Shown: in pieces, positions 1-28,962 of the stretch
How positions within the stretch are numbered: the stretch's first letter is position 1
Layout of the letters: each line of letters starts with the position of its first letter
NCBI GenBank assembly: GCA_016218805.1
Contig: JACRCW010000153.1
Location: 1-64,000 of the forward strand
DNA from: Deltaproteobacteria bacterium
Lineage (GTDB): Bacteria > Myxococcota > JACRCW01
Length of the DNA stretch: 64,000 nucleotides
Direction: 5' to 3'
Notes under the pieces: generated by a model
Database searches by the model: none
Seen by the model: the letters and a program-made list of their open reading frames with translations, nothing else
Told to the model about the DNA's origin: nothing
Position numbers and translations under genes: made by a program

Positions 1-220
1 GACGGCATCGGGTAGGGGGTTGGACGGCCTCGGGTAGGGGGTGGGACGGCCTCGGGTAGGGGGTGTGACGGCCTCGGGTATGGGGTAGGATGGCCTCGGG
101 TAGGGGGTGGAACGGCCTCTGGTAGGGGGTAGGACGGCCTCGGGTAGGGGGTAGGACGGCCTCGGGTATGGGGTAGGACGGCCTCTGGTAGGGGGTAGGA
201 CGGCCTCGGGTAGGGGGTGG
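1..220. repeat. 22-bp G-rich tandem repeat (VNTR), 10 copies visible, may extend left of the window
   Basis: Units start at 1, 23, 45, 67, 89, 111, 133, 155, 177 and 199. Consensus GACGGCCTCGGGTAGGGGGT(A/G)G with a few substitutions per copy and no spacers. Confidence 0.97.
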
Positions 221-348
221 GACGCCCGAGTCGGATGGGATGGACGTCCCGCACAGGCTGGGGACGGACACAACGCGCCCCACCGGGCGCGGCAAGGGCG
301 CCAGCAAGCGGAGGGTGGCCACGCCGCGCGGGTCAGCTTCCCGCTAGG

Positions 349-1384: not shown

Positions 1385-1460
1385 GACCCTGACCTCGCCG
1401 CGTGGAGGGCTGCATGGTACCGCAGTCCTTGCCCGCCCGCCCCCGGGCCTGGGAAGCCAC

Positions 1461-4224: not shown

Positions 4225-4342
4225 CTCCACGGCGCGCGAGGCTACCACCGCGCCGCGTCTTGTCGCGGTGGACCTTCCTGTGATGGCATCCGCCGCATTC
4301 CCGCGCGGGCGGCCCCGCGCCTCGACGAGGTTGACTCCATCC

Positions 4343-8000: not shown

Positions 8001-8020
8001 CGTGGGGGCCTCGCCGCGAA

Positions 8021-9535: not shown

Positions 9536-10362
9536 CGACGGAAACCGACACCACCCGGCTGGCGCTGCGCATCCTCCAGGGGACCACGCTGGAGGACAAG
9601 TTGGCCGCGTTTGATCCGGCGCTCCTCGTGGACGGTGTTCCGCTGCCGGCCGTGCCACCACGGGAGCCGGGGCGCGCGCCGTCCCTGCGCATCATCTCGC
9701 AGGGGGAGCGCCTCCCCCGGCCGGGCCAGCTCACCGCCGCGGCCGCGCGTGCGGAATGTCTGCACCGCTTTGCCAACCACGAACTGCAGGCGCTGGAGCT
9801 GATGGCGTGGGCGGTGCTGGCCTTCCCCGCAATGCCGTGGTCGTTCCGGCAGGGGATCATGAACAACCTCCACGACGAGCAGCGCCACTTCCGGCTCTAC
9901 CTGGGCCGCCTGGCCGCACATGGGCTGCGGTTTGGTGACCTGGCGTGCAACGGCAACTTCTGGGCGCAGGCCGTGCGGCTGGGTGACCCGCTCGCGTTCC
10001 TGTGCGCCGTGGGCCTCACGTTTGAGACCGCCAACCTGGACTTTGCGCTGCTCTACCGCGACGCGTTCCGCACCGCGGGCGCGGAGGCGGAGGCCTCCGT
10101 CATGCAGCGCATCCACGACGACGAAGTGGGTCACGTGGCCTGGTCCGCCAGCTGGGTGCGCCGTCTGGCGCGGCCCGCCGAGACGCTGCTCCAGGCCTAC
10201 CAACGCGTGACGCCGTTCCCGCTGGGACTGCACCGGGCCAAGGGGCGCAACTTTGTGGTGAGTTCCCGGGTGCGCGCGGGGTTGGAGGCGGACTTTGTGG
10301 AAGCCACGCGCGTGGCGCGGTCCCCGCAGGAACAGCACCCGCGCCGGGGGCGGCCAGGGTGA
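9532..10362 (+). CDS. DUF455 ferritin-like di-iron protein
   Basis: LHRFANHELQALE, DEQRH, FETANLDF and DEVGH supply carboxylate/His ligands; GTGA overlap with the upstream gene. Confidence 0.85.
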   Translation: MTTETDTTRLALRILQGTTLEDKLAAFDPALLVDGVPLPAVPPREPGRAPSLRIISQGERLPRPGQLTAAAARAECLHRFANHELQALELMAWAVLAFPAMPWSFRQGIMNNLHDEQRHFRLYLGRLAAHGLRFGDLACNGNFWAQAVRLGDPLAFLCAVGLTFETANLDFALLYRDAFRTAGAEAEASVMQRIHDDEVGHVAWSASWVRRLARPAETLLQAYQRVTPFPLGLHRAKGRNFVVSSRVRAGLEADFVEATRVARSPQEQHPRRGRPG

Positions 10363-11378
10363 CCACGCTGCTGCGGTGCAACCCGGACTTTGAAATGCGC
10401 CTGGCGCGGCAACCGCCGCCGTTGGGCCCGGCCGCGGAGGCGGCGGCGCTGGTGGCGCGGTTGTTTGCGCTGGCTGGACCCATGGGGAGCCGCGTGCAGC
10501 TGTTGTTGGGTGACGCGTGCACGGACCTGGACGGGGACGCGCTGCGCCGCCAGGCGCGTGCCGCCGGCCTCTATGACGAGACCGCGGCGGCGGCGGCGCC
10601 CTGGAATACGCCGGGCGACCACGCGGTCGCCTACGCGCGCGATGACCGCACGGCCGAGAACCCGCGCGAGGAGGAGGTGTCCGCGCGCTGCAACCGCAAG
10701 GACCTCTCCGCGCAGCTCGCGCGTTCTGAGGGTCTGGAGCCGGGCCTGTTTGCCCACGTGCGGGTGGTCACGTCCGTCGACGCGATCCGGGAGGCGCTGG
10801 CACGGGTGCCGGACGCCATGGCGGCCCACTGGGTGCTCAAACCCGTGCTCGGCTTTGCGGGCGGCGGGAGGGTGGCGGGGAGGGGCCGGACCCTGCCGGC
10901 GCGCGCGGCCGCCCGGGCGCAGGCGCACCTGCGGCGTGATGGAGCCCTGGTGCTGGAGCCGTGGGTGGAGCGCCTGGCGGACCACTCCACGCAACTGTTT
11001 GTGGACGACGACCTCACCGTGCGCCTCCTGTTCACCCTGGTGCTGCGCAACAACGCATCCGGCCGCTACCGGGGCAACGCCTCCCTGCCGGCGGACGACC
11101 CGGTGCGCCCCGCCTTGGAGCGCGCGGCGCGGGTGGCGGGGCGCTGGCTGGCCCACGCGGGCTACCGCGGGCCCGCGGGCGTGGACGCGTTTGTCTACCG
11201 TGACCCGCTCACCGGCGCGGTGGAGGTCCGCCCGCTCGTTGAGATCAACGCGCGGTTCACCCTGGGGCTGCTGGCGGCGTTTGCGGGGACCGGCGGCGGC
11301 CGGCGCGCCGGGTTCCACTTCCGCTTTGACACCGCGCAGCCGTTTGGGGAGTTCCGCGACGAGGCCGGCGAGCGCTGA
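10359..11378 (+). CDS. ATP-grasp fold protein (putative ligase)
   Basis: WVLKP, LVLEPWVER, GYRGPAGVDAF, VEINARFT; GTGA overlap with the DUF455 gene. Confidence 0.78.
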   Translation: MTTLLRCNPDFEMRLARQPPPLGPAAEAAALVARLFALAGPMGSRVQLLLGDACTDLDGDALRRQARAAGLYDETAAAAAPWNTPGDHAVAYARDDRTAENPREEEVSARCNRKDLSAQLARSEGLEPGLFAHVRVVTSVDAIREALARVPDAMAAHWVLKPVLGFAGGGRVAGRGRTLPARAAARAQAHLRRDGALVLEPWVERLADHSTQLFVDDDLTVRLLFTLVLRNNASGRYRGNASLPADDPVRPALERAARVAGRWLAHAGYRGPAGVDAFVYRDPLTGAVEVRPLVEINARFTLGLLAAFAGTGGGRRAGFHFRFDTAQPFGEFRDEAGER

Positions 11379-11430
11379 CGGCGGGCGGGATGTTGCCTCG
11401 GCGGAGCGACGGCCCCACTATTGGCCGATC

Positions 11431-13479
11431 ATGGCTTCCCCGGGACCGGTGCCCAAGCGTTTGGGCCGCTACGACATCATGGAGCGGCTGGCCACGGGAG
11501 GCATGGCCGAGATCTTCCTGGCGTGCGAGCGCGGCCTGCGGGGCATGGAGCGCCTGGTTGTCATCAAGAAGATCCTGCCGCACCTGGCGGTGCAGCAGAA
11601 CTTTGTGGACATGTTTGCGCAGGAAGCGCGCATTGCCGCGCGCCTGAGCCATCCCAACGTGGTGCAGATCCATGACCTGGTGGAGGATGGCGACGACATC
11701 ATCATTGTCATGGAATACGTACCCGGCTCCACGCTGCGCGAGCTGACCGAGGCGGCCGAGGAGTTGGGGCGGCCCATCCCGCCCGGCGCGGCGGTGGGCA
11801 TGGTGGTGCAGGCGTGCCGGGGCGCGCACGCCGCGCACGAACTCCGCGACGGGGTGAACCGCCCGCTGGGCCTGGTCCACCGGGACATCAGCCCGCACAA
11901 CCTGATGGTGACCAGCGACGGGAACGTGAAGCTGCTGGACTTTGGCATTGCCAAGGCGACGGAGGGCCTGGAGAACACGGCGACTGGAACGCTGAAGGGC
12001 AAGTACTGTTACATGAGTCCGGAACAGTGCAATCACCTGGCACTGGACCGCCGTTCTGACGTGTTTGCGCTGGGAATTGTGCTGTGGGAGCTGCTGGCGG
12101 GCACGCGCCTGTACAAGCGCGAGAGCGAGCTGGCGTCCATGCAGGCCATTGTCAACGAGGACGCGCCGCGCATCACCACGCTGCGCCCGGACGTGCCGGC
12201 GGCGGTGGCGGACGTGCTGGCGCGGGCGCTGGTGCGGGACCGGGAACACCGCACACCGTCCGCGGACGAGTTCCGCCGCGGCCTGGTGGAGGCCGCTGAG
12301 CAGTCCGGGCTGAGTGCCAATGAGGACGTGGTGGCCGCGCACGTGCGGGACACGCTGGGCGCGCAGCACGAGGACCGCCGCGCCCAGGTGGAGAAGGTGG
12401 TGGAGCGCACGCTGGCGCAGACGCCGTCCGTGTCATCCCCGGGGCGGCTGCGGCGCGCCGCGGTGGTGCCGCCCGCGGAGGACACGCACGACGCGGTCAC
12501 CGCCGTGGAGCGCAAGGTCCCCGTGCCGCCGGAGCCCGCGCCGCCGGTGGCGCCGGTGCACGCGTCGTCGCGTTGGCGCCGCGCGGTGGTGAGCGTGCTG
12601 GCCGCGCTGGGCGGCGCCGTGGTGGCGTGGACGGGCCTCATGTACTTCACGGGCGGCTTCCGCTCTGACCCGCCGCTCAAGGGACCGCCCGTGTACGTGG
12701 GGTTTCCGCCGGTGATGGACGCGGCGCTGCAGACGCGCGAACTGGAGCCGCTGCGCACCTACCTGGAGCGCACGCTGCTGCGGCCCGTGCGCTTCCCGGT
12801 GAACCGCAGTTACGACGAGACGGCCGCCCACGTGCTCAATGGCACCTACGCGTTTGGCAGCCTGCCCCCCTACCTGTACCTGAAGACCCACGCCAAGGAT
12901 GCGCGGGTGTTGCCGTTGGTCTTCAAGGCGTTTGAGGGCAGTTCCTCGGGGACGGAGGGCGTCCTGCTGGTCACTGACCAGGTGGCCGCCCAGACGATCA
13001 AGGAGACGGCGGGGCTGTCCTTCTGCTTCACCGACCCCAGCTCGCTGACGGGTTTCATCATGCCGCGCGCGGCTCTGAAGATGGCGGGGCTGGACCCGGA
13101 CGTGGCGGCGGCCCGGCGCCACTTTTCCGGAGACCACCTCCAGGTCCTGCGTGACCTGCTGGCGGGCCAGTGTGACGTGGGGGCAACGTTCTCCGGCGCG
13201 TACCTGTCCGCACCCCAGGCGGGCCTGCAGGTGGGCCGGCTGCGGATGCTGGCGGTGACGGGGCGCTCCCCGCAGGACGCCATCTGCGCGGGCCCCGCGG
13301 CCACGGAGCCGGAACGGCGCGCCCTCACCGAAGCGCTGGTGAAGTTTGATCCGCGCGTCCACGCCGGCGGTGTCAACGCGCTGGGAGAGGTGCAGCGCAT
13401 CACCGGGTTCAGCCCGGGGACGGACAAGGCCTACGAATCCCTCCGTGCCCAGCTTGCGCTGGCGGGAATGCTCAACTGA
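11431..13479 (+). CDS. membrane Ser/Thr protein kinase with C-terminal PhnD-type phosphate/phosphonate-binding domain
   Basis: LATGGMAEIF, VIKKI, HRDISPHN, DFG, YMSPE; one TM helix (AVVSVLAALGGAVVAWTGLMYF); then EPLRTYLE..SYDE, FTDPSSLTGFIMP, FSGDH..L..GQCDVGA. Confidence 0.9.
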   Translation: MASPGPVPKRLGRYDIMERLATGGMAEIFLACERGLRGMERLVVIKKILPHLAVQQNFVDMFAQEARIAARLSHPNVVQIHDLVEDGDDIIIVMEYVPGSTLRELTEAAEELGRPIPPGAAVGMVVQACRGAHAAHELRDGVNRPLGLVHRDISPHNLMVTSDGNVKLLDFGIAKATEGLENTATGTLKGKYCYMSPEQCNHLALDRRSDVFALGIVLWELLAGTRLYKRESELASMQAIVNEDAPRITTLRPDVPAAVADVLARALVRDREHRTPSADEFRRGLVEAAEQSGLSANEDVVAAHVRDTLGAQHEDRRAQVEKVVERTLAQTPSVSSPGRLRRAAVVPPAEDTHDAVTAVERKVPVPPEPAPPVAPVHASSRWRRAVVSVLAALGGAVVAWTGLMYFTGGFRSDPPLKGPPVYVGFPPVMDAALQTRELEPLRTYLERTLLRPVRFPVNRSYDETAAHVLNGTYAFGSLPPYLYLKTHAKDARVLPLVFKAFEGSSSGTEGVLLVTDQVAAQTIKETAGLSFCFTDPSSLTGFIMPRAALKMAGLDPDVAAARRHFSGDHLQVLRDLLAGQCDVGATFSGAYLSAPQAGLQVGRLRMLAVTGRSPQDAICAGPAATEPERRALTEALVKFDPRVHAGGVNALGEVQRITGFSPGTDKAYESLRAQLALAGMLN

Positions 13480-13578
13480 CCCGCCGCCCGGCGACGCAGT
13501 GAGTCATCCGGGCGAAACAGTGCTTCCGCCCCGGCTCCCGCCTGCTACGCTTCCGTCGACGGACAAGGGAGGCAGGGC

Positions 13579-16500
13579 ATGGGCACGGGCTATTCGCGCC
13601 GGTGGCTGAGCGGCGCGTTGTGTGTGGCGGGAATGTTCTTGCTGGCGCGCTGCGCCGGCTGCAACCCATCCTCCAACCCGGTTGACGACGAGGGGACCGG
13701 AGACGTCGGCGCGGCGTGCTCCACGCCAGGCGCCTGCCGCACCGGGTTGCTGTGCGTGTCCGGGACGTGCCAGGCGCCCAACCCGGTGGATGGCGGCGGC
13801 TCCTCCTCGTCGTCGTCGTCTTCGTCCGGGTCCACGTCCTCTGGCGGCGCGGACGGCGGCGGCGGGGACGCGTCCGTGCCCACGGGCGTGCTGACCATCA
13901 CGCCCTTCCCGGAGGCCGAGTTCGGCGCGCAGCGCATTGGGACACCGGTGGGCGTGAACATCTTTGCCACCAACACGGGCAACGCGCCGTTCACCGTCAT
14001 CTTGGTCCTGCTGGACGGCAACCCGACCAGCGAATTTGCGGCAGAGCCCACCGGGTCACTCAACCGCGTCATGCAGCCGCAGGATGAGCTGGTCATCCGC
14101 GTCACGCACACGCCGGCAGATGGCACACCGGACCGGGCGCAACTCAAGCTGGTCACGTCCCTGGACCCCAGCACGCCGGTGAGCGTGGACCTGGTGGCGG
14201 TGTTCAAGGGGACTCCGGTGGTGAGCGTGACCACCGACGTGGCGCAGGTGAGCCCGTCCATCACCGCCACGGACCTGGGGTTGGCGCCGCTGGGCACCAC
14301 GCTCGCGCGGCAGGTGTACGTGCGCAACACGGGGGCGGCCAACTCCGTGCTCACGTTGCAGGGGCTCACGGTCACGCCGCTCAGCGGCGCGTTTGCGGCA
14401 ACCGCCGGGACGGTGGCCGGCCGGGTGCTCTCGCCGTTCACCGGGTTCTGCGGCACCGGTGGCACCTGCCCGGCGGACCACCCCACCTGCCAGGGCACCA
14501 TGTGCATTGACGCGGACGGCGTCACCGCGGACACGCTGGTGGTGACCGTGGAGTTCACGCCCACCGCGGCGGGGCCCACGCAGGCCATCCTGACGCTGTC
14601 CCACACGGACGGCACCACGGACGCGCAGACCTCCATCACGCTGGACGGCAGCGGCGCCCGCGGCGTGCTCAGCGTGACGCCGGGGGCGGTGGATTTTGGG
14701 ACGGTGTTCGTGGGGCGGCGGGCGGACCGGCCGGTGGTGCTGCAGAACGTGGGTGACGCCACGCTGGCCATTGACCTGCCCGCGGTGACGGGTGCGGCGG
14801 CGTTCACGTCAGACGCCACAGCGGCGCTGGTGCTGGCGCCCGCCCAGGCGGCGTCCGTGGTCCTGCGGGTGGAGCCACAGCTGCCAGGTCCGCTGGCCGG
14901 GACGCTGCAGATCCGCGGCCCGGATATTGAACCCTTGGATGTCCCCCTGTCCGCCAACGCGCGCCACGCGCCGGAGATCCTGGTGGAACCGTGGCTGTCG
15001 TTCGGGAGCGTTTACGTGGACACCACACGCACGCTGCCGCTGCGCATCCGCAATGGCGGGCCGGGCGCGCTGTCCATCCTCAGCATCGCCGTGGAGGGCA
15101 CGGCCGCCGGGCGCTACAGCCTGTCCCCACCGTCGTTCCCGGACGCGTTGGACCCGCTGGCGGCGCCCACGGACAATGACCCCTCACTGCGGCTGGACGT
15201 CTCCTACCGGCCGTTGGGACCGCCCAACCTGGTGGAGGACCGCGCCACGCTGGTGCTGACCACGGATGACCCGGACGCCCCGCGCGCGGAGGTGACGCTG
15301 TCCGGGCTGGGGGTGCACCCGGTGGTGGTGGTGCAGCCCACCTCGCTGTCCTTTGGGGACGTGCGCGTGGGCGGGGTGCCCGCGGAAAGGACCCTCACCG
15401 TCTACAACAACGGCATCGGCCCGCTTTCCCTGACGTCGCTGTCCACGGGCGGTGGCGCGTTTGTGCTGGCCAATCCCCCGCTGCTCCCTGCGGCGGTGTC
15501 ACTGGGAGCGCCGCTGGTGCTCACCGTGCGGTTCACGCCTGCGGGCCTGGGGGCCGCCTCGGACGTGCTGAACATCACCTCTGACGACGTGGCGACGCCG
15601 TTGGTGGCCGTGCCGCTGTCCGGCAACGGCGCGCTGGGCGCGCTGACCCCCACGCCCGCCAGCCTGGCGTTTGGCGAGGTGTTCGTGGCGCGCACGGAGC
15701 GGGCCACGGTCAGCGTGCAGAACACGGGCACGGCGGACGTGCAGGTGACCGGGGCCCGCGTGGACGGGAATTCCGCGTTCCGCTGGGTGGCGCCGGGCAC
15801 GCCGTTCACGCTGGCTCCCGCCGCCACGCGTGCGCTGGAGGTGGAGTTTGCCCCCATTGCCGAAGGACAAGGCCTCAGCGCGCAGGCGGTGCTGGAGACG
15901 GACCTGCCCACGCCGCTGATCGTGCAACTGTCCGGCAGTGCGCGCGCGGAGCCCACGGTGCTGGTGCCTGCGTCGGTGGACTTCGGGTCGGTGGACACGC
16001 TGTCCACCCGCGTGCTGGACGTGCCCATCCGCAACCTGGGGCCCGGACTGCTCAGCGTCACCAGCCTCACCATCACCGGTCCCGGCGCCGCGCGTTTTGC
16101 CGCCACGCCCACGGGCTTTGCGGGGTCACTCCCGCCGTTGGCCACGCCCTCCAGCCCCACGCCGGCCTTCACGCTGGCGGTGAGCTACCAGCCCGCCGCG
16201 CCCGTGACGCTGCTGGCGGACGTGGCCACGCTGCACGTCTTCACCGACGATCCCGACACGCCCGACGCCACCGTGGAGTTGGCGGGCGTGGGCCGCCGTC
16301 CGGTGGTGGGCGTCAACCCGCTGGCCGTGACGTTCCCCGACACGCGTTCCGGAACCGCCTCCAGCCCCATCACGGTGAGCGTGTTCAACAACGGCGCGGG
16401 TCCACTCACCCTCACCGCGCTGGAGATCGCCGGGGCGGCGTTCTCGCTGGCGGCGGCGCCGGCACTGCCCACCACAGTGCTGCCCAGCTCGCCGGCCACG

Positions 16501-19167: not shown

Positions 19168-19512
19168 TCAGCCGCGCCGGCTGGCAAGGCCCGCGCGGAC
19201 GCGCTGCACGCGGGTGTTGAACTCGGCGGCGTCCACTTCGTCCACCTCTCCGTCAGGGAAGGAGACACGCGTCAGGTATTGCATGGCGCGGACAAACTCT
19301 CCCGTGGCCCAGTCCAGCGCCTCCACGTCCATGCCGCCGCCCGGCGTGGCCACCGTCCGCACCGGGCGATCACCCACCACGAAGTAGCGCCCGGCCAGCG
19401 ACGGCACGCGCGGTGCGCTCCCGTCGGGGGACAGCCCCACCGGGTCGTTCCAACGCTCGCCGAGGGTCGACTTGGGGGCGGGGGGGTGCGTCGGCTTTGC
19501 CATGGGGCTCAC
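19168..19512 (-). CDS. small hypothetical protein, candidate immunity protein/antitoxin
   Basis: 114 aa (111 aa from ATG 19503). GTG start overlaps the upstream TGA (GTGA). Globular-looking RYFVVGDRPV..GGMDVEALDWATGEF. Function inferred from position only. Confidence 0.7.
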   Translation of the reverse strand: MSPMAKPTHPPAPKSTLGERWNDPVGLSPDGSAPRVPSLAGRYFVVGDRPVRTVATPGGGMDVEALDWATGEFVRAMQYLTRVSFPDGEVDEVDAAEFNTRVQRVRAGLASRRG

Positions 19513-22500
19513 TCCGCTTCCGTCATCCGGATGTGCACGCTGCCGTCGGGCCGGACGTCCACGGCTTCCACGCGGAACGCGGTGCCGTGGGCAAACAGGA
19601 CCTCGGACTCCGCCCGGCCAAAATACGACAGCGCGGAGATGTCCCGTCCGGTGCGGGACTGGATGTCATACACAACGTTGCGCCTGCCCAGGGTGGTGGG
19701 CGCGGAGGCCGCGCTGGTGGTCGACAGGAAGTCATGGTGAACCACTGGAACGCCCTCCGCCATGTGCGCACGGTACTGCGCCACCAGCGCCGCGGGGTTG
19801 TCCAATTGCAGGCCGCGGAGCACGCGACCCTGGTATGCGGGCAACCGCGACAAGCCACGGTTGAGCGCCGCCACGTAGGGCAGGTGCTCGCGGATGGCCG
19901 CCGGGTCGGTGCTGCGCAAGGCCCGGTTGAGTTCCTTGAAACCGCTCATCGTGTACGCGTGAATGGCACGCGCCTCCTCGGGATGCGCCCGGAGTTGGGG
20001 CGAGGCCGCGGTCGCATCGTCCAGCCGGGCGCGTGCCAACTCACCCAGCGGCACCCGCTGGTCCAGGTACGCCCGTGCCGCGGGCTCCAAGGCGCGCCCG
20101 TGCAACGCCACGTCATAGAGCGCACGGGAGCGCTGCCGCAGCCCGTCCACGTACGCCTGCTCCGGCCCAGTCAGCGCCCGCCCGTCCTGCCTGGCGCGCG
20201 CCTCCAGGCTCCGGATTTGTTCGTAGATCCTGTGACCCGGACCCTCCTTCACGGCCAGGACGTCCCGGTGCTGCAACTGCACTTCCACGGTGGTGCCCTG
20301 CATGGGGACGTGGGCGATGACGTCTCGGTAACCCTCCGCCGTGGGCGTGGTGAAGCGGTCCTTGATGACGGCGTCGGGGTAGGTGCGGCGCAGGTCTTCC
20401 AACCCGCGGGCAAACGCCTCCGGGCTGTCGTAGACCACCATGCCGCGCGCCAGGTCCTTGAGCCGGGTCGGGTCGCCGCCGTAGTCGGCGAGGACCTTTT
20501 CCAGGGCGCGCGGGCGGCCCTTGAGACCGGGTACGGAGGCTTGGCCCCCCGTGCGCGCGGCGAGTCCTTCCAGGTCTGCCTTGAGGCGCGGGTGGGCCTC
20601 CGCCGCCCGGGTGTAGGCCGCGTCAAGCCCCGCTTCAATCTGCTGGCGCGTGCGGCCGCCCGGCGCGTCCAGTTGGGGTGTGACCAGCTCCGCGTCAGCC
20701 CCGGGTGCAGGCCGGGCGTCCAACGCGTCCACGGCGCGTCCAAACTCGGCGCGCGTGCTGGCCACGAATCCGGGGATGTCCGTGGCCCCTGCCGCGCTGG
20801 CCGTGTGGGTCACGAGCGCGCGCCCCTGGGCGCCGCCCACCTGGACCCCCACGGCGTTGCGAAGGGCTGTCTCGCGCATCACGCGCTGGCTGGCCAGTTC
20901 CTTGGCGGCGGCGGGATCCGTCCGGGCCCGGGGCTCCAACTCACGGATGCGCGCGTCAATGCCCGCCAGACGCTGGGAGTCGGACAACAGGATGGTGTTC
21001 TTGGCAGCCGCATCCAGCCGGGCCGCTGTTTCGCGCAGGGTGAGCTTGCGCGGGTCCAGCCCACGCAGCGCCTCCGTCACACTGCGGGCCTGCTGGCGCA
21101 TGGCCTCGCCGTGCGCGGCGTTCTGCGCCAGCTGTTCGCGCACGTGGACCGCCAATTCCGCGGGCGTGCGGCCCACCGGAACGGGCATGTCCATGGTGAA
21201 CGCCGGCCGGATTCCATCAGCGGGAACCTCCACCCGCACCACCGACTGGTCCCCACGGCGGAGGGGTGCCTGCACCGCCGCGTCGATGTTGCCGTGCGCG
21301 AGCGCATGGCCGGCGTTGTGACTGAGCTGGGCGCCGAGCACCTCTGCCCGGGCCGCCTTGGCCTGCGCCATGCGCAGCCCGTCGTACACCTTGGCAGGCT
21401 GGCCACCGCGCAGGGCTTCCGCGCGTGCGGTCAGCAGCTGGTTGCGCATGTCCTGGGCGTGCGTTGTTACCTCGTCATGGCTGTTGCCACCGGCGTACTC
21501 GCCCTGGGGCGCGGCGCCGGAATCATGCCCTTTCTGGAAGGCCTCCGCCCTCCGCGCGGCGGCTTGCGCCCCCTCCGGTGACAGGTCCAACCCGCGCGCG
21601 TCGTGCGGGTTGCCAAACACGGACGGGTCCGCCGTGTGGTCAAACGTGGTGCGTCCAAAGTCCGGGCGCGGGGTGCCCCGCCGGACGGCGGCGGCCTTGG
21701 CGGCGTGGACCACTTCGTGGGCGGATGAGTTGTTGCCCGGGTGCAGGTCCACCACCGCTTCGTGGCTCACGGCCAGCGTGTTGGTGGCGGGGTCATAGCT
21801 GGCGTTGGCGTGCGGGCTGAGTTCGGGGTCATAAACCACCTTCAGGGGCGTGTCGGTGGCCACGCGTCCGTTGCCGAATTTCTCGTTCAGGGAGCGCGCG
21901 AACCGGTTGAGCGGGTGGTTCCCTTCCGGCTTGATGATGATGCGTTCACGAATCCCACCGTCGGCGCTGAGCACCAGGTCGGGCGCCACGGCCACCCCCC
22001 CCTGCTCCAACCGCGCCTGCGCCTCGGCGGGCACGGACCTCCCGCTTGCTGCAGCGTCCCGGAACAACTGGTTCCGCTTCTGTTGCTGCAGCGGCGTGTA
22101 CGCGTCGGCTTCCAGGCGGGCACCCGGTGCCTCTGGCGGCTGACCTTGGGCAGCGGGCCGGACAGCCGGGTCAGCCACGTGGGGTGCATCCATTGGGACG
22201 CCGTGCGGATTGGCCGCCGTGCGCGGCGCGTTGTTGGGCGCGGCCAACGCGCCAGGCGGGTGGACCGGCAGCGGTGTGCCCACGTCAGCAGGCGTCACGC
22301 GCGGCGCCCCAGCGGTGCGGCCGCCGCCGGTGAGGTTGACGTCCACCGCCGTCCCCTTGAGCCCACCCAGGCCACCCACGGCGCCACCCACGACGACGCC
22401 CGCCAGGCCCTCCCGGGTGGTGACCGAACTGGTGGCCGCATCCTGCATGTTTCGCAGCCCCTGGCCGAAGCCCTGCGACCAGTTGTCCAGCTCAACCGCC

Positions 22501-25500
22501 TTACCTGCCGCGGCTCCCGACGCGTTACCCACTGCCGCGTCGGCCAGGCCGCCCACGACGCCACCGGACACCTTGCCCGCGGTGCCGCCGATCACCTTGA
22601 CGCCGGCGTTTTCCGCCGCCCGGGCGAATATTGCCCCGCCCTTGCCCGCGCCCACGGCCCCCGTGACGCCCTCAGCCGTCCCCTTGAGGGCGTCCTGTGC
22701 AAAGTCCCTGACCTGGTAGTCCCTGCCATCCGCCAGCGCGCCGGTGCCGGTCCTGACGGTCACGCCCGCCAGCGCGCCGGCGCCCGCCGCCACGGCAAAC
22801 CCCGCACCACCGGTGGCCACGCCCACCGCGCCCACCGCCAGGCTGGTGCCGGTATCCTTCACCCAATCCGTGGCTGCCTTGCGGTGGGTATCCACGTCTC
22901 CCAACCGCCGGTGCAGATTGTCCACCTTCTGGTCAATGATCTGCCGCTCCTTCTCCGTCAGGAAACCCTTGGACTGGTACTGCTTGTAGGTGTCCTGGAG
23001 GGTCTGGAACTCGCCGCGCGCGTCCGCCTTCATGCCGGACACGTTGATGCCAATGAAATCCGCCATCCCGTCGCCCAGGCCGCCGCGGTTCATGGTGCCA
23101 CCGTAGCGCTGCGCCAGCTGGGCCAGGTCCTTGTTCAGCGCGTCGGTCCGCTGTTTGTCGCCAGCCTGGATTCCCGCGTTGATTCCCTCCAGGGACCGCT
23201 TCGCCCAGTCGCGCTGGGCCTGGGTGGCGCTGGGGTCATCCGCGGTCTTCTTGTACAGGTCCGCCAGCGCCCGCACGTCGGCGTCGGCCTTGGCCGCGGC
23301 GTCCTTCAGGGCGCTCTGGGCCGCCGCCTCGCGGCTGAGGATGTCATTGCGCACAGCATCCGGCGCGTTGCCTTCGCGTGCGTGCTGGGCAACCTGCGTG
23401 CTGAGGATGGGGTCCATTGCGGTGGCCTGAGCCCGCGCGTGCTCCAGTTGCGCCTTCTCCGCCAGGAGCGCTGCCCGAACCTGCGGGCTCAGCTGGTCGT
23501 TCCGCAGGGCGTCGGTGGTGCGCTTCAGCTCGTCGCCAATCTTGGTCTGCGCTTCCCGCACCTTCTGGTTGTATTGCGCGCTCCCAAGCGGGAGACCCTG
23601 GGCATCCTTGAGGACCTGCGCCGCGTTGCCCGCGGCGCCTTCGGGGATGAACAGCTTGTTGTCCCGGTACAGCTTGCCGTCCGACGCTGCGAGTTGCGGG
23701 TTGTACATCATCAGGGTTGCCTTCGCGTCGGCCTCACTGATTCCCAGGCGCTTTGCCACGTCCTGGCTGAGCGTGGTCAGGTTGTCTCCCGCCTTCACCG
23801 TGTAATTGCCGCCTTTCACGTCGGCCGTCGCGCCTGCCTGGGTCGCCGCGTAGTAGTTCTTGAGCGCGTCGCGGCCGGCTGCGTCCTGCGTCTGCAGTGG
23901 AACCTTGAGGTTGATGCCGGCGGGGATTTCGGTGTCCTTGTATTTCGCCAGCTCCGGGTTGGCGGCACGCAGTTCGGCCACCGTCACGTTGTTGTCGCGC
24001 GCCAGCTTCTCCAGTGATCCCCCGGGCGGGAGCTTCACGTCCTTGGTCGCCACGGGCGGCGGCGTCTCCGCCGTGCCGGCCGAGGGGTCTCCCCCGGGTG
24101 CTCCCTCGCCATCCGCGCCCTGCCCGTCGGCGCCGTGCCCATCCGGCAACCCGCCGCCCGGCACGGCCTGCACCAGGTCGCTGAAGTTCCGGTTGCTCAC
24201 GGGCAGCTGCATGACGTCGGCTTCCGCCGCGGCGCGGGCCGCCTCGGCGCGCGCCAGCTCGGCCTTCCCCGCCGCGGTGTCGCGCGTCGCCTTGCGCGAA
24301 TCCAGCGTGCCCTGCAGCGCGGCGGCCCCAGCGCTGCGCGCGTCCCAGGACGCCTGCCGTGCCCCCACGGCGCCCTCGCGGGCCTTTCGCAGTTGTTGCT
24401 CGGCGTCGGCCACGGCGCGGGAATCACCAGACGCGCGGGCCTGTGCCAGGGAGGACTCCGCGTCCCGCACGGCCTGCTCCGCCGCCTTCTCGGCCTGCCC
24501 GCTCTTCAGCACCGAATCCGCCGCCTGCCCCAGGTTGGCCGCCGCGCGCAGCCCGTCAAACACCTGGTGCGTGCCGGCCTTGGCCGGGTCCGTGACGACG
24601 TTCCCCTGGGCATCCACCAGATTGCCGTCCTTGTCACGGTTCTGCTCAACGGCCGGGCCGTCCTTCCCGTCCTTGATGGTGCTGGCGGTGAACAGACCGG
24701 AGGCCGCCGCACCCAGGTAATCCTTCTCATTCACCGCGCGCGCCGTGTTGAGCGCGCCGCTGGCGACGTTGAGTCCGTGCTTCAGCCCGCCGCCGGTGCC
24801 GTCCTGCTTGGGGCCGCTGGCGTATGACGCGCCCAGGCTGGCCGCGGTGGAGGCCGCCCCCAGCAGGGAGCTGCGCTTGCTGCTCTCGGCGTCGGCCAGG
24901 CGCTTTTCCGCGTCGCGCACGGCGGTCGCGTCGCCGGAGGCGCGCGCCTGCGCCAGCGCGGCCTTCGCGTCGTTCACCGCCTTGTTGGCCGCCTGGATGT
25001 TCTGCACCGCGCCAATGCCCTGGGACGCGTTCTGCAGGTGCTTGCTCACCTCACCGAGCTTCTTGCCCACGCTCTCCATGGCCTTGGACGCGCCGCTGGC
25101 CGCGTTTCCCAAGCCCTGCGCCACGCCGCCCACCACGCCGGCCACCCCGCCGACAATTCCCGCAATCCCTCCCTGCTTGATGGACTGGATGCCGCGCGCC
25201 GCCTGCGCCACGCCGTTGCAGACGTTCACCACCGTCTTGAGGCCCTTGGACGCGGCGTCAAATCCCTTGCCCAGGGCTCCCGTGATGCCGCCGGCCACGG
25301 TGGAGGCGATGCCGGACACCGCGCCCAGGATGCTGCCGGCCTTTACCGCCTTCACCACGTTGATGACGCCGCTGACCACGCGCGCGGCCACGCCCACCGG
25401 CCCGGGAATGAAACTCGCCACCTTCAGGACGATGGGCGCGGCCTTCTTGATGAAGCTGCCCACCTTGGACAGGAAGCTGGGCTTCTTGGTCGAACTGCCG

Positions 25501-28500
25501 GTGACCGTGTTCTGGTCATTCACGGTCATCTTGACGTTGTGCTTGCCAATCTTGAACTCGTGGCTTCCTGGCGAGTTCACCGCCGCGGCAACCTTCTGCA
25601 GGTCACCGTTGGCGCTGCCCGTGCTCCCCGCGTGGCCAGGGATCTTGGCCGCGCCCCACAGGAGGTCCTTGGCTTCCTGGTCAGAGAGCTTGGGCGCGCC
25701 AATCTTGTCCAGCACCTGGAAGTTGTTGAGCGTCTTGCGGACGCGCTCCTGCTGCTCCTCCAACGTGGTGGCGCCGTTGATGTAGTTCGTGGCGGCCTGC
25801 AGCTGGTTGGGGTCCTGCTTCTCCAGCGGCACGCCCGCGTCACGCACCATGCCGGCCACGTCCCCGGCGGTGATCTCCTTGGGCGGGCCCTTGGGGTCCG
25901 CCTTCCCGTCGGGGTTCATCACCTTGGCGGCATACGCGCCATTCTGGTTCACCTGCGCCTGCGTGATGCCGCCCTGCTCCTGGCCGCGGGTGTTGAACGT
26001 GTTGACGGCCTGCTCGTTCCACAGCGCCTGCGGCGGGTTCTCGCCCAGGCCGGTGCCGATCTTCTGCGCGTCCTCCTCGGTGAGCGGCGGCCCCTGCCGA
26101 ACGGGCTTGCTGTCGACGATCGTCTTGGTCTCTGCCGCCGTGAACTCCGGGATGCCCTTGTTCTCCAGGACGTTGAACGTGTTCAGCGTCTTGCGCAGTT
26201 TCTCGGCCTGCTCGCCGGCGTCCTTGGCGTCGTTGACGTAGGCGGTGGCCTCCTGCAGGTGCGCGGGGTCCAGCTTGGACACGTCCACGCCGGCGTCCTT
26301 GGCCACCTGCGCCACGTCGTCCTGGGTCAGGGCCTTGGCGGGTTCATCCTTGTTGTCCTCCTTGATGCCCAGCGCCTCGCGCGCGGTCTTGCCGTTGGCG
26401 TTGACCTGCTTGTCCTCCAGCGACCCCTCCTTCGCGGCCGCGTCGTGGACCATGTTGATGGCCTGGTCGTGCCACATGTTGCCCGCGTTCACCGTTGTGT
26501 CGTCGCGCGGGATGTCCACCGGTGGCCGCGTCTCCGCGGGGGCCGCCGCGGCACCCTCCTGCGGCGGTGCCTCTTTGGCCGCGGTGGGCTCCGTCGTCGG
26601 AGGAGGAGGCGCCGGTGGCGCAGCGTCCGCCGGCTGCTGCGCGTCCGCCGCTTGGGGCGCTGGCGCCGCCGTTCCACGGCGCGCGGGCGCGCGGGCCTGG
26701 GCGTGCACCGCGCCTTCCGGCTGCGCCGCTGGGGCGTGCTCCCCTCTCGCTGCGCGGCCTCGCGCTCCACCACCACGCCGGCCGCCGTGCGCGCGCGGCT
26801 CCTGCGCCGGTTGTTCGGCGAGGTGCGCCTGTGCCCGCGCAATCGCCTCTTCAACGCTCTGCCCGGCCTCCGCGTCCAGCGCGGCGGTCTTCTCAGCAAA
26901 GTTCTTCCGGAGCAGTTCCTCCTTGAGCTTGGCGGTCTCGCCCTTCATCCAGTGGGCAATCGCCTCGCCGCCCTTGGTCTTGGCCAACAGCTCCGGCGGC
27001 AGGTCACGCGCGGCCTGCGCCGCCACCCGCCCCGCGGCCTCACGCGCCACGTCCATGAGCTTCTCTCCCGGCACCTTCCGCGCAAGGTCCAGCGCCAGGT
27101 TGCGCAGGCTCTCCGGGCCCTTGGTGGCGCCCAGCGTTCCCGGCGCCACGGCATGGGCCGCCGCCACCACGTGACCCGCCAGCACGGCCCCGTCCATCTT
27201 CCGCACAAGCTGGCCCACCTTGCGCGTCAGCTCGCCGCCGTTGGCCTTGCCGAGCAGGTCCCCCGGCATGCGCGCGGCAATCCCGCTGGCCACGCTGGCC
27301 AGGGACTCCACCGCCGCCTTCTTGACCACCTCCGAACTGAGTTTCTTGAACAGCCCCACCGCTTCCGGGTTTTCAGGCGCATTCACCGCCTGCTTGTGCG
27401 CAACCGCCTTGGCCGTCTCCGCCACCAGCGACGCCTCGCCCGCCGTGGGTTTGCTCCCCTTGCGGGACGTGGCGACCTGCTCGCGCGCGACAGAAGGCCG
27501 GGCAGCCTCCCGCAGCCCGACGGCCGCGTGAACCTCGGCCGCCGCACCGTTGGGTGCGGCCGCCGCCACCGGTTCGTTCGCGGACGGTGGGGCTGCTCCG
27601 GCTCCCGCCGGTTCCGCGCGGGCGCGCTCCGCGATTCTCGACGACGCGGCGTTCAGCGAACTGAGCGAACCACCCAGCACCTTCGCCACGTTGCCCGCCG
27701 CGTCCGTCAGCCGGTTGATGCACCGCGCGGCGTTCTTCACCACGTCCTGGACGCCGCTCCCGGCCCACGCCCCATCACTCTTGGCCTCGCGGTGCAGGAC
27801 GGCCAACTGCTTCTTCAGCTGGCCGGCCCCATCCGCCAGTGTCGTCGCGCTGCCGGCCACCTCGCTCATTGCTGCGTGCAGTTCCCCCTTGCCAACACCC
27901 TGCTCCACCTCGCGCGTGAGCCGGCGGAGCTCGCCTTGCGCGGCGCGGGCCTCGCCCATCAGGCGCCCGGCCTGCACCGTCGCCTGGCCCAACTCGCGCG
28001 CCCACCCGGCGGGGGCGCCGTCGCGCGCGGCCGCGCGTGCCAGCGTGGTGGCCTGCTGCAGCTCACCGCGCACGTCGGTGGCGGCCAGGGACGCTTTCTC
28101 CAGTTGCCCGCGCGCGTGCTCCACGCGCACGCCCACCGGCGCCTGCTGCGCGCCGGTCACGTCTCCCATCTGCAGGCGGTGCCGGACGTCGTCCAGTTGT
28201 TCCTGCGCGCGCGGGTCCGCCTCCGGCAGCAGCGCCTGCTCGGCGGACGGGCGGTCCGTCTGGGGCGCCGGTGCCTCGGCGGAATCCTCGTAGCCCGTCG
28301 TTGCCAGGCGGGCCGCGGCCTCCGCGGCGGGACCCTGCGGAGCCGTGCGCTGGACCGCGGCGGCATCCTCCGCGCGGTCGGCGTCTTCCTTCGGCGGCAG
28401 GCGGAGCTCCTGCCCGGCCTTCAGTGACCCGTCCTCGGCCACCTGCGGGTTGAGCTCGCGGAGTTTCTCCTCGGTCGTGCCGTTGTCGCGCGCCACATCG

Positions 28501-28598
28501 GCAAGCGTCTCGCCGGCCTTGGCGGTGGCCTTGGGTTCCTGCTTCTGCTCATCGTCCTGCTTCTGGACCGCCCTGGAACCACCGCTCTCAACGCGCAT
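19509..28598 (-). CDS. ~3030-aa LysM-containing polymorphic toxin-like protein with C-terminal RelA/SpoT-type synthetase and ADP-ribosyltransferase domains
   Basis: Three LysM-like domains; helical repeats; Gly/Ala-rich hydrophobic segments; HEVVH; KGRPRALEK / KDLARG / GYRD / EVQ; AIHAYT / LNRALR / VLRG / FLSTT / ESEVLF. ATG 28598 chosen; ORF open to 28673. Confidence 0.85.
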   Translation of the reverse strand: MRVESGGSRAVQKQDDEQKQEPKATAKAGETLADVARDNGTTEEKLRELNPQVAEDGSLKAGQELRLPPKEDADRAEDAAAVQRTAPQGPAAEAAARLATTGYEDSAEAPAPQTDRPSAEQALLPEADPRAQEQLDDVRHRLQMGDVTGAQQAPVGVRVEHARGQLEKASLAATDVRGELQQATTLARAAARDGAPAGWARELGQATVQAGRLMGEARAAQGELRRLTREVEQGVGKGELHAAMSEVAGSATTLADGAGQLKKQLAVLHREAKSDGAWAGSGVQDVVKNAARCINRLTDAAGNVAKVLGGSLSSLNAASSRIAERARAEPAGAGAAPPSANEPVAAAAPNGAAAEVHAAVGLREAARPSVAREQVATSRKGSKPTAGEASLVAETAKAVAHKQAVNAPENPEAVGLFKKLSSEVVKKAAVESLASVASGIAARMPGDLLGKANGGELTRKVGQLVRKMDGAVLAGHVVAAAHAVAPGTLGATKGPESLRNLALDLARKVPGEKLMDVAREAAGRVAAQAARDLPPELLAKTKGGEAIAHWMKGETAKLKEELLRKNFAEKTAALDAEAGQSVEEAIARAQAHLAEQPAQEPRAHGGRRGGGARGRAARGEHAPAAQPEGAVHAQARAPARRGTAAPAPQAADAQQPADAAPPAPPPPTTEPTAAKEAPPQEGAAAAPAETRPPVDIPRDDTTVNAGNMWHDQAINMVHDAAAKEGSLEDKQVNANGKTAREALGIKEDNKDEPAKALTQDDVAQVAKDAGVDVSKLDPAHLQEATAYVNDAKDAGEQAEKLRKTLNTFNVLENKGIPEFTAAETKTIVDSKPVRQGPPLTEEDAQKIGTGLGENPPQALWNEQAVNTFNTRGQEQGGITQAQVNQNGAYAAKVMNPDGKADPKGPPKEITAGDVAGMVRDAGVPLEKQDPNQLQAATNYINGATTLEEQQERVRKTLNNFQVLDKIGAPKLSDQEAKDLLWGAAKIPGHAGSTGSANGDLQKVAAAVNSPGSHEFKIGKHNVKMTVNDQNTVTGSSTKKPSFLSKVGSFIKKAAPIVLKVASFIPGPVGVAARVVSGVINVVKAVKAGSILGAVSGIASTVAGGITGALGKGFDAASKGLKTVVNVCNGVAQAARGIQSIKQGGIAGIVGGVAGVVGGVAQGLGNAASGASKAMESVGKKLGEVSKHLQNASQGIGAVQNIQAANKAVNDAKAALAQARASGDATAVRDAEKRLADAESSKRSSLLGAASTAASLGASYASGPKQDGTGGGLKHGLNVASGALNTARAVNEKDYLGAAASGLFTASTIKDGKDGPAVEQNRDKDGNLVDAQGNVVTDPAKAGTHQVFDGLRAAANLGQAADSVLKSGQAEKAAEQAVRDAESSLAQARASGDSRAVADAEQQLRKAREGAVGARQASWDARSAGAAALQGTLDSRKATRDTAAGKAELARAEAARAAAEADVMQLPVSNRNFSDLVQAVPGGGLPDGHGADGQGADGEGAPGGDPSAGTAETPPPVATKDVKLPPGGSLEKLARDNNVTVAELRAANPELAKYKDTEIPAGINLKVPLQTQDAAGRDALKNYYAATQAGATADVKGGNYTVKAGDNLTTLSQDVAKRLGISEADAKATLMMYNPQLAASDGKLYRDNKLFIPEGAAGNAAQVLKDAQGLPLGSAQYNQKVREAQTKIGDELKRTTDALRNDQLSPQVRAALLAEKAQLEHARAQATAMDPILSTQVAQHAREGNAPDAVRNDILSREAAAQSALKDAAAKADADVRALADLYKKTADDPSATQAQRDWAKRSLEGINAGIQAGDKQRTDALNKDLAQLAQRYGGTMNRGGLGDGMADFIGINVSGMKADARGEFQTLQDTYKQYQSKGFLTEKERQIIDQKVDNLHRRLGDVDTHRKAATDWVKDTGTSLAVGAVGVATGGAGFAVAAGAGALAGVTVRTGTGALADGRDYQVRDFAQDALKGTAEGVTGAVGAGKGGAIFARAAENAGVKVIGGTAGKVSGGVVGGLADAAVGNASGAAAGKAVELDNWSQGFGQGLRNMQDAATSSVTTREGLAGVVVGGAVGGLGGLKGTAVDVNLTGGGRTAGAPRVTPADVGTPLPVHPPGALAAPNNAPRTAANPHGVPMDAPHVADPAVRPAAQGQPPEAPGARLEADAYTPLQQQKRNQLFRDAAASGRSVPAEAQARLEQGGVAVAPDLVLSADGGIRERIIIKPEGNHPLNRFARSLNEKFGNGRVATDTPLKVVYDPELSPHANASYDPATNTLAVSHEAVVDLHPGNNSSAHEVVHAAKAAAVRRGTPRPDFGRTTFDHTADPSVFGNPHDARGLDLSPEGAQAAARRAEAFQKGHDSGAAPQGEYAGGNSHDEVTTHAQDMRNQLLTARAEALRGGQPAKVYDGLRMAQAKAARAEVLGAQLSHNAGHALAHGNIDAAVQAPLRRGDQSVVRVEVPADGIRPAFTMDMPVPVGRTPAELAVHVREQLAQNAAHGEAMRQQARSVTEALRGLDPRKLTLRETAARLDAAAKNTILLSDSQRLAGIDARIRELEPRARTDPAAAKELASQRVMRETALRNAVGVQVGGAQGRALVTHTASAAGATDIPGFVASTRAEFGRAVDALDARPAPGADAELVTPQLDAPGGRTRQQIEAGLDAAYTRAAEAHPRLKADLEGLAARTGGQASVPGLKGRPRALEKVLADYGGDPTRLKDLARGMVVYDSPEAFARGLEDLRRTYPDAVIKDRFTTPTAEGYRDVIAHVPMQGTTVEVQLQHRDVLAVKEGPGHRIYEQIRSLEARARQDGRALTGPEQAYVDGLRQRSRALYDVALHGRALEPAARAYLDQRVPLGELARARLDDATAASPQLRAHPEEARAIHAYTMSGFKELNRALRSTDPAAIREHLPYVAALNRGLSRLPAYQGRVLRGLQLDNPAALVAQYRAHMAEGVPVVHHDFLSTTSAASAPTTLGRRNVVYDIQSRTGRDISALSYFGRAESEVLFAHGTAFRVEAVDVRPDGSVHIRMTEAE

Positions 28599-28962
28599 GT
28601 GTTTCTGCCTCCCCCCGGCCGCCACCGCCGCAACCGGGAACCGGACAACCCCGGCAGTATTGCCTGCGGTCAAGGTTGCAGCATCCGTCGTTGGGTGGTC
28701 CAGTGTCCCACTCGTCGTGGGTGCGTCATGGCGCGGTGCCGCAACCGTTTGGCGCGCGTGGATACGCCCCTGCGGACGCTGCGTTGACGCATTGGGACGC
28801 TGGCCGCCGAGTCGAGTCCAGGCGCAGGGCGGTGTGGTGCTGGCGCAGGTGGAGAAGGGCGAAGAGGCGCGGTTGCCCGTGACTCACCGGCTGGTGCACC
28901 GCTGACGGCGACGCGGTTGGACCGCGCGTGGAACGCGGCAGTCCCGCAGTTGCTGCACCTCC

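Follow-up and report, generated by a model that had tools for sequence, protein, structure and literature searches.

The synthetase domain of the giant protein

The stretch of DNA considered here (hereafter the window) consists of 64,000 nucleotides of contig JACRCW010000153.1 (assembly GCA_016218805.1, forward strand) from a bacterium of the phylum Myxococcota. Its minus strand carries a giant gene, whose product contains towards its C-terminal end a domain related to Tas1/Apk1, a toxic branch of the RelA/SpoT homologue (RSH) synthetases. This domain is followed within the same protein by an ADP-ribosyltransferase (ART) domain, and directly downstream of the giant gene lies a small gene, P0155, which is a candidate immunity gene for the synthetase. 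The coordinates of these and other features are collected in Table 1. An earlier, sequence-only reading of the region had described an internal synthetase-like domain on the basis of five motif strings in one minus-strand frame of the giant open reading frame (ORF), and all five were found there at the coordinates that it gave, except that EVQLQH was shifted by one base. The G+C content of the window is 71.4%, and the G+C content at third codon positions (GC3) is 0.87 over the giant ORF and 0.88 over the synthetase domain; because of this high GC3 value at 71% G+C, the giant frame bears the coding signature of the window DNA. The database copy of the protein from the same contig (P0005) is identical in sequence, but it is 3029 amino acids (aa) long as it starts at M26 (ATG at 28598). 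All searches of the window's own genome covered an assembly of 6.43 Mb that is 92% complete, and the neighbouring genes that were scanned comprise 16 ORFs around the giant gene, between positions 1272 and 45363.

When aa 2650-2880 were compared with all PDB sequences using phmmer (E<=10), the only significant match of the single domain sequence was Tas1 (6ox6_A, E 1.1e-13), the next match having an E-value of 0.16. A HMMER search over 1.84 billion representative proteins detected 2209 relatives at E<=1e-3, including 774 at E<=1e-10 and 28 at E<=1e-30, and in view of the Tas1 match and of these numerous relatives a chance similarity is ruled out. Relatives were compared using the best 150 representatives of the 2209, the giant protein included. 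An alignment of 47 sequences, made up of the domain and 46 short relatives picked by length from these 150, contains four invariant columns (D2740, D2784, E2797, and Y2817) and 14 that are at least 90% conserved (K2718, R2722, K2726, G2733, R2743, R2773, and P2777 in the first half of the domain; G2781, Y2782, R2783, G2793, Q2799, H2814, and Y2853 in the second), and the window protein keeps every one of them. The profile of this alignment matched Tas1 in the PDB with an E-value of 4.7e-27, followed by YwaC (3.6e-9), SaSAS (3.4e-7), RelA (2.7e-5), and RelSeq (5.8e-4). In the profile alignment with YwaC, the Asp of KDLAR corresponds to that of HDIAGVR, the GYR of GYRD to that of GYRS, and the Glu of EVQ to that of AEIQ. 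The Asp of the D-x-x-x-R motif (D2740), the G-Y-R motif (starting at G2781) and the Glu of the E-x-Q motif (E2797) have catalytic roles in RSH enzymes, and these active-site motifs are all kept in the domain. The view that the motifs are intact, including the three residues that had been singled out for mutation (D2740, Y2782, and E2797), is thus upheld.

The structural results are in accordance with those from sequence comparisons. The AlphaFold2 model of the domain had a predicted local distance difference test score (pLDDT) of 89.3 and a predicted template modelling score (pTM) of 0.81, and in a Foldseek search Tas1 was the top match (E 6.7e-10, TM-score 0.71, about 25% identity in the structural alignment), followed by SAS1/RelQ, SAS2/RelP, SaEAS (8vx3, ranked third by fold), CapRel, Rel, RelA, and SpoT. 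In total, 67 PDB entries were matched at E<=1e-3, and all among the matches listed are RSH synthetases. Some relatives of the domain are also recognized by the Pfam RelA_SpoT model, which matched nine of the 37 that were scanned at E<=1e-4, four of them above the cut-off. Based upon the family profile, the fold, the conserved residues and the Pfam matches of relatives, the domain is therefore assigned to the Tas1/Apk1 branch of the RSH synthetases, its placement within the family being based upon E-values and fold ranking. The identification of aa 2677-2860 as an RSH synthetase domain of the toxic Tas1/Apk1 kind is supported by both sequence and fold, and the original suggestion of a synthetase is in agreement with this.

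The C-terminal ADP-ribosyltransferase and the gene P0155

The synthetase had been placed in a penultimate position, and this placement is borne out by the R-S-ExE type ART domain that comes after it. This domain scored 35 bits with the Pfam family ADPrib_exo_Tox (cut-off 23.4) and 28.4 bits with ART (cut-off 22.3); its best PDB matches were 6dre_B and 6drh_B (E about 1e-7), with whose R, S-T, and ExE motifs its own line up. The NCBIfam model XopAI also matched it at 1.8e-10, a score far below the XopAI cut-off. Among the 150 best representatives, the Tas1-like domain is near the C-terminus (fewer than 120 residues after it) in 121 and internal in 29, including the giant protein, and hence an internal position is less common than a terminal one without being rare. 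Some of the representatives with an internal domain have a further toxin-type domain on one side of it, viz. a calpain (P0006), a YwqJ deaminase (P0013), a Zeta toxin (P0090), ART-PolyVal (P0036 and P0133), or Ntox1 (P0135). In BLASTP searches of the tails (E<=0.01), no match to the window ART was found in the other 28 internal-domain representatives, and the pairing of a Tas1-like domain with an R-S-E ART was not seen among the other 149 best representatives. The composition provides no sign of a recent insertion of the ART, as GC3 is flat across the junction between the two domains.

The closest relative of the synthetase domain (42% identity) is found in P0006, a protein of 3127 aa that begins with an eCIS_core (DUF4157) domain, contains two tandem Tas1-like domains and ends in a calpain-type protease, i.e., a giant protein with several warheads on a carrier of the extracellular contractile injection system (eCIS) type.

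Homologues of the ART are present in 20 of 400 other sampled genomes of the phylum, at 21 loci. None of these loci contains a Tas1-like domain or a match to P0155, and downstream of them no conserved small gene was recognized by eye, without rigorous clustering. The window's genome contains three ADP_ribosyl_GH genes, all on contigs other than that of the toxin.

The ATG codon of P0155 (19503) begins 5 bases past the stop codon of the giant gene, and a GGAG sequence overlaps that stop codon; from this arrangement the two genes appear to be translationally coupled. The synthetase had also been described as having no hydrolase partner. The part of this claim that concerns an HD or small alarmone hydrolase (SAH) holds, since none of the 16 neighbouring ORFs has an HD domain and the only HD_4 match in the genome is in a 753-aa frame on another contig; the wider notion of a domain without any partner does not, since P0155, a non-enzymatic and immunity-like protein, directly follows the toxin ORF. 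The sequence of P0155 matched nothing in Pfam, NCBIfam or PHROG, and a phmmer search of the PDB was blank at E<=10, for Tis1 as well. A database search among proteins of near length revealed only two homologues. Homologues were detected in 13 of the 400 other genomes of the phylum, the weakest two of which (E 1.5e-4 and 6.5e-4) are doubtful, and at eight loci in a species-representative collection; the two sets may overlap, so that at most 21 loci are involved. At four of these (L019, L021, L038, and L039) the ORF immediately preceding the homologue has a Tas1-like domain at its C-terminal end, and the L019 homologue is 50% identical to P0155, whereas an ART is not adjacent at any of them. As a base rate, Tas1-like domains occur in seven of the 400 genomes (8 loci), and two of these eight loci are followed by a member of the P0155 family. 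At L021, a 256-aa protein combines an N-terminal HD_4 domain (32.1 bits against a cut-off of 27.2) with the P0155 homologue as its C-terminal module, and the gene for this fusion overlaps the stop codon of its toxin.

The locus L021 (G055:C92:4000-20000, about 35-15134) also merits description in its own right. Its toxin is a 786-aa protein with a DUF4781 and a Tas1-like domain, and in addition to the HD_4/P0155-like fused gene its neighbourhood contains genes for an injectisome-type type III secretion system (T3SS), viz. YscO-like, FliK/SctP-like, FliM/N, FliP, and FliH/SctL. Judged from this gene content, a T3SS-linked alarmone-synthetase effector with its own immunity gene hints that T3SS may mediate antagonism between bacteria. 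Other homologues occur in different settings. Six loci from one genus (L023-L028; genomes G175, G269, G009, G218, G156, and G295) contain a conserved 141-aa orphan with a P0155-like N-terminal module (for example L023:6834-7256, minus strand), whose C-terminal extension (…AKAEGRPLTEQERAIV…) shows weak similarity (E about 7e-4) to the last helix in the profile of the Tas1-like toxins. At L037 and L040, on contigs of 41-42% G+C labelled as Micrarchaeota metagenome-assembled genomes, P0155-like genes lie far from any toxin, between CN_hydrolase and PAD_porph genes, which are an agmatine-pathway pair. Because of these two loci in low-G+C DNA, the P0155 family is wider than both the toxin loci and the phylum.

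A model of the complex between the synthetase domain and P0155 was built using our own alignments. The interface score ipSAE was 0.89 in all three runs, compared to 0.00 for the best of three controls; the runs had at least 82% of their contacts in common and the pLDDT of the partner was at least 77. In a benchmark, 116 of 157 solved complexes and two of 215 mismatched pairs attained this mark. The confident part of the interface takes in D2740, Y2782, and Y2817, and thus the active site. When P0155 was modelled alone (pLDDT 75.4) and compared with 48,161 chains using VIA-align, Tis1 (6ox6_B) ranked third (Z 4.2; root-mean-square deviation 3.7 A over 65 aligned residues), a match that is notable for a target named beforehand but weak in absolute terms.

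Carrier, delivery, and neighbouring genes

In a Pfam scan of the whole giant protein only LysM and ADPrib_exo_Tox were found, and no PAAR, Rhs, LXG, MuF, DUF4157 or XopAD module was detected. Two LysM stretches were reported, the best of which is N-terminal with no signal peptide evident by eye ahead of it, and PHROG 33758 matched aa 1544-1613, in the second LysM-like region. The glycine-rich hydrophobic segments could possibly serve as membrane-insertion helices. Searches with aa 1900-2650 of the carrier, among proteins of 1679-5345 aa, returned only the protein itself, and a BLASTP comparison of the full protein with the other 149 best representatives (including P0006) revealed no common segment outside the synthetase domain. 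As far as tested, the LysM-bearing carrier appears from these comparisons to be unique to the window's genome.

The region that precedes the toxin domains contains an HEVVH motif, and no Pfam match or significant PDB match was found for it (aa 2076-2649); a possible role is that of a processing peptidase by which the warheads are set free. Scores of 0.86-0.90 were obtained for language-model look-alikes of aa 2185-2495; those at 0.89-0.90 are viral, one of them being an LPD23 cluster, and the look-alikes are considered only as leads. The genome has a single FHIPEP gene, which was rejected as an injectisome component because it lies in a flagellar gene cluster with flagellin, FlgK, FlgI, FlhF, and FlhG.

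The giant gene is preceded on its own strand, at a distance of about 290 bases, by a gene whose 334-aa product carries a phage tail collar domain (Pfam Collar 5.7e-22, PHROG tail protein 5e-37); no other phage genes were found among the 16 neighbours scanned. On the opposite side, a 1860-aa protein with repeated ASH/HYDIN-type Ig-like domains is encoded by an ORF that converges on P0155, its stop codon being 7 bases from the P0155 end. Further along, in an ORF of 1029 aa, a Ser/Thr protein kinase domain is joined to a periplasmic phosphonate-binding domain at the C-terminus (Phosphonate-bd 2.8e-40), which is an unusual sensor-kinase fusion.

Table 1. Features of the giant toxin gene and its surroundings (window coordinates)
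Feature	Residues (aa)	Coordinates	Strand	Basis or remark
Giant toxin gene		19509-28673	-	3054 codons counted from first TTG; stop codon 19509-19511
Tas1/Apk1-like RSH synthetase (pyrophosphokinase) domain	2677-2860	20094-20645	-	PDB phmmer, family profile, model, Foldseek
Family-invariant residues	D2740; D2784; E2797; Y2817	20454-20456; 20322-20324; 20283-20285; 20223-20225	-	alignment columns
Motif LKGRPRALEK	2717-2726	20496-20525	-
Motif KDLARG	2739-2744	20442-20459	-
Motif GYRD	2781-2784	20322-20333	-
Motif EVQLQH	2797-2802	20268-20285	-	one base from the earlier figure
Motif GHRIYEQIR	2813-2821	20211-20237	-
C-terminal ADP-ribosyltransferase domain	2897-3040	19554-19985	-	R2953, S2984-T-T, E3022-S-E3024
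Candidate immunity gene P0155	111 aa	19171-19503	-	own stop codon 19168-19170
N-terminal LysM	50-93	28395-28526	-	Pfam LysM E 3e-15
Second LysM-like region, two LysM-like stretches	1545-1679	23637-24041	-	position inferred by reading the sequence
Glycine-rich hydrophobic segments	1078-1189	25107-25442	-	Kyte-Doolittle, 19-residue window >1.4
Second hydrophobic segment	1943-1973	22755-22847	-	Kyte-Doolittle, 19-residue window >1.4
Pre-toxin region	2076-2649	20727-22448	-	HEVVH motif at 21705-21719
Tail-collar gene	334 aa	28963-29967	-	Pfam, PHROG
ASH/HYDIN-type Ig-like repeat protein	1860 aa	13579-19161	+
Kinase/phosphonate-binding fusion	1029 aa	10390-13479	+	Pfam

Proposed function and relation to known systems

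The homology and fold of the domain, its intact motifs, the coupling of the two genes, the recurrent pairing of their relatives in other genomes and the complex model that passes the benchmark mark all point in the same direction, and we consider it probable that the giant protein contains a competent Tas1/Apk1-type toxin domain, as one of two warheads, which is blocked in the producer by P0155. Within a target cell, the synthetase domain would transfer the beta-gamma pyrophosphate of ATP to the 3'-OH of a purine nucleotide. The acceptors would most likely be adenine nucleotides, giving rise to (p)ppApp, with guanine nucleotides being possible as well, and the outcome would be a draining of ATP and a flood of toxic alarmone. 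We lean towards adenine because Tas1, for which ATP depletion and toxic alarmone production are reported (PMC10083569), is by far the nearest characterized relative. The C-terminal ART would act as the second warhead, and both would be carried by the unique LysM-bearing carrier with its internal hydrophobic segments. The producer would be protected by binding of the 111-aa protein over the synthetase active site, as reported for Tis1 on Tas1, with no hydrolysis of the product.

A number of observations weigh against this reading. The Pfam model RelA_SpoT (PF04607, cut-off 27 bits) did not match the whole protein at E<=1, and for aa 2650-2880 no Pfam family was found even at E<=10, RelA_SpoT included; NCBIfam also gave no match for the synthetase domain. 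The sequence-only reading had named the lack of a match to RelA_SpoT profiles as a result that would refute it, and formally this is what Pfam gives. However, this profile test is too strict for the clade, because the family profile reaches the bona fide RSH enzymes YwaC and RelA at the E-values given above, and the Tas1/Apk1 branch is known to lie at the detection edge of the Pfam model. As for P0155, a Foldseek search with its model gave no match at E<=1e-3, the Z score for Tis1 is tied with unrelated rows, and, since the like complex 6OX6 is already solved, the success of the complex model may partly reflect the model's memory. Further, most homologues of P0155 are orphans in unrelated contexts, the Tas1-like neighbour being present in four of the at most 21 loci. 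No immunity gene for the ART is recognizable in cis at the locus, which is odd for an anti-kin toxin. The genome contained no match to VipB (T6SS sheath), PAAR_motif or Phage_T4_gp19 (eCIS tube), and none to eCIS_core above the cut-off; as no known delivery module is detectable in the protein either, this reading offers no route by which the toxin would arrive in a target. Lastly, in the profile alignment the window family has GYRD where Tas1 has GYSG, which makes the choice of acceptor from the nearest neighbour weak, and (p)ppGpp-only enzymes are present among the characterized members of the family (PMC12691689).

The last point leads to an alternative in which the chemistry is the same and only the acceptor differs, the domain being an exported alarmone synthetase that is either specific for (p)ppGpp or promiscuous. 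The products of the Apk1-seeded family are indeed diverse (PMC12691689), with (p)ppApp only for Apk1 and Apk2, both alarmones for SaEAS, and (p)ppGpp only for VpEAS and AaEAS, and the earlier caution that the product cannot be predicted from sequence was well placed. The family consensus GYRD also shares GYR with the (p)ppGpp synthetase YwaC. Against this, Tas1 is much closer to the domain than YwaC or SaSAS, both by profile and by fold, and we regard this alternative as a possibility that is unlikely on balance. Much the same fold is also present in enzymes such as FaRel2, PhRel2, and CapRel, which pyrophosphorylate the 3' CCA end of tRNA, and CapRel (7ztb_A) is matched by Foldseek at E 1.6e-5; a domain of this kind would block translation and make no alarmone. 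SAH-type hydrolases can also reverse tRNA pyrophosphorylation, and the HD_4 fusion at L021 would then be compatible with such an activity. It is nevertheless very improbable for the window protein, as no tRNA-modifying toxic small alarmone synthetase (toxSAS) was found by sequence (phmmer at E<=10 was significant for Tas1 only), none named CapRel is among the matches listed for the family profile (E<=1), CapRel ranks only 26th by fold, and the closest characterized relatives all use free nucleotides.

Other alternatives concern the roles of the two domains and of P0155. The internal position of the synthetase, in a family where the domain is mostly C-terminal, and the swapping of tips of polymorphic toxins by recombination (PMC3482391) would fit with an inactive relic that was left when the ART module joined the 3' end, the ART being the sole working warhead. 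Such a relic is hardly credible, as all invariant and near-invariant residues are kept, the model is confident, GC3 is flat at the junction, P0155, the counterpart of genes that follow Tas1-like toxins elsewhere, is still in place, with its coupling and its reading frame intact, and the domain is also internal in 28 other representatives, some with a calpain, deaminase, Zeta toxin or ART-PolyVal domain. It is also conceivable that P0155 neutralizes the ART or is unrelated to either domain, the synthetase being unguarded because it is inactive until export. Polymorphic toxin loci usually pair the immunity gene with the terminal domain, the P0155 homologues are mostly orphans, and Sec-exported members of the family lack an immunity gene (PMC12691689). 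This is improbable, however, given that the homologues of P0155 adjoin Tas1-like termini at four loci and an ART at none, that the 21 ART-homologue loci have neither a Tas1-like domain nor a P0155 match, and that the complex model sets P0155 over the synthetase active site. The giant protein could further belong to a phage or conjugative element as a "polyvalent" effector, injected with DNA in order to overcome a new host, rather than an interbacterial polymorphic toxin, in keeping with the ddrB-ParB, ART-PolyVal, InPase, and LPD38 domains of the relatives P0133, P0121, and P0146, with the tail-collar gene upstream on the same strand and with the viral look-alikes of aa 2185-2495. We judge this to be quite improbable, since the 16 scanned neighbours include no further phage or conjugation genes and there is no compositional island, the giant protein has no Pfam polyvalent-associated domain, and polymorphic toxins are the typical setting for an immunity-like gene coupled in this way.

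If the preferred reading, of an active synthetase guarded by P0155, is carried further, a fuller account of the locus may be proposed, which taken as a whole is speculative and rather unlikely. A carrier with an undescribed delivery route would bring two unrelated enzymes into the target; of these, only the inner, universally lethal synthetase would need an antidote, in the form of a very divergent Tis1-like protein. The ART module would have come in behind the toxin domain, while the immunity gene stayed at the 3' end; it would go unguarded because the producer itself lacks the ART substrate, which might for instance be a protein of the prey or of a eukaryote.

Tas1/Apk1-like synthetases rank among the fastest known toxins, and their delivery and neutralization are actively studied. 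The toxin family is already known and what is new is the arrangement, in which an inner Tas1-like domain is followed by an R-S-E ART on a carrier in which no known delivery module is detectable, and a divergent gene, Tis1-type as far as the models indicate, is placed behind both toxin domains. If the proposed function is correct, the window provides an example of a Tas1-like domain that is intact and lies inside the protein with a second intact warhead behind it, on a carrier in which none of the catalogued delivery modules is detectable, in a genome where no type VI secretion system (T6SS) or eCIS genes were found. It would also suggest that the structural Tis1-type immunity proteins have a divergent branch whose connection to Tis1 escapes sequence searches, and in which one relative is fused to an alarmone-type HD hydrolase. 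The segment aa 2677-2860 and the 111-aa protein form a pair that is small enough for direct testing.

Some known classes can be set aside. The locus differs from T6SS effectors of the PAAR/Rhs class in that the protein has no PAAR, Rhs or VgrG domain and the genome no VipB or PAAR, and from toxSAS toxin-antitoxin systems in that the domain is embedded in a 3054-aa protein and not a small stand-alone toxin. Of the characterized systems, the best match of the domain by both sequence and fold is the Tas1/Apk1 and Tis1 effector/immunity pair of the Pseudomonas aeruginosa T6SS (PDB 6OX6). Like Tis1, which is reported to act over the active site of Tas1 (PMC10083569), P0155 is small, lies directly downstream on the same strand and is modelled over the active site. 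The differences are that the domain is only about 25% identical to Tas1, is not terminal, has GYRD in place of GYSG, and belongs to a protein without PAAR in a genome where no T6SS was found, while P0155 has no sequence match to Tis1 and its fold match is weak. In Apk2, a MuF-fused (p)ppApp synthetase of Bacteroides caccae, there are two immunity genes, one for the structural protein BcTis1 and one for the hydrolase Aph1 (PMC10083569). The common theme is a Tas1-like toxin with a structural immunity protein, optionally plus an HD hydrolase, and the L021 protein fuses both functions; the window locus, in contrast, lacks a hydrolase, its sole partner being the non-enzymatic protein, and its carrier is not of the MuF type.

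The enzymes SaEAS, VpEAS, and AaEAS (Ahmad et al. 2025, PMC12691689) belong to the same Apk1-seeded family, in which toxic or exported SYNTH domains are found on varied carriers, with 1,369 non-redundant Apk1-like sequences in all. The resemblance to SaEAS is seen both in the fold ranking of 8vx3 and in the profile match to SaSAS, which is the SaEAS sequence. The export modules given there for the family are a Sec signal, LXG, XopAD, MuF, DUF4157, and Rhs/PAAR, and none of these is detectable in the window protein by Pfam or, for the signal, by eye; the terms "tandem" and "multiple toxin" do not occur in the main text of that paper. For the ART, the best solved relative is the protein of 6DRE/6DRH, with which its R-S-E motifs are aligned, but the window protein lacks a PAAR domain, and its gene has no immunity gene of the ADP-ribosylhydrolase type beside it. 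The depositors named the protein "PAAR repeat-containing protein", and we take it to be the T6SS effector Tre1. Zhang et al. 2012 (PMC3482391) describe giant proteins that end in two toxin domains and the use of LysM as a module for adhesion, and the window protein resembles these multi-toxin proteins in its size, its two toxin domains and its LysM; unlike the multi-toxin and polyvalent proteins described there, the window locus keeps a candidate immunity gene for the inner domain.

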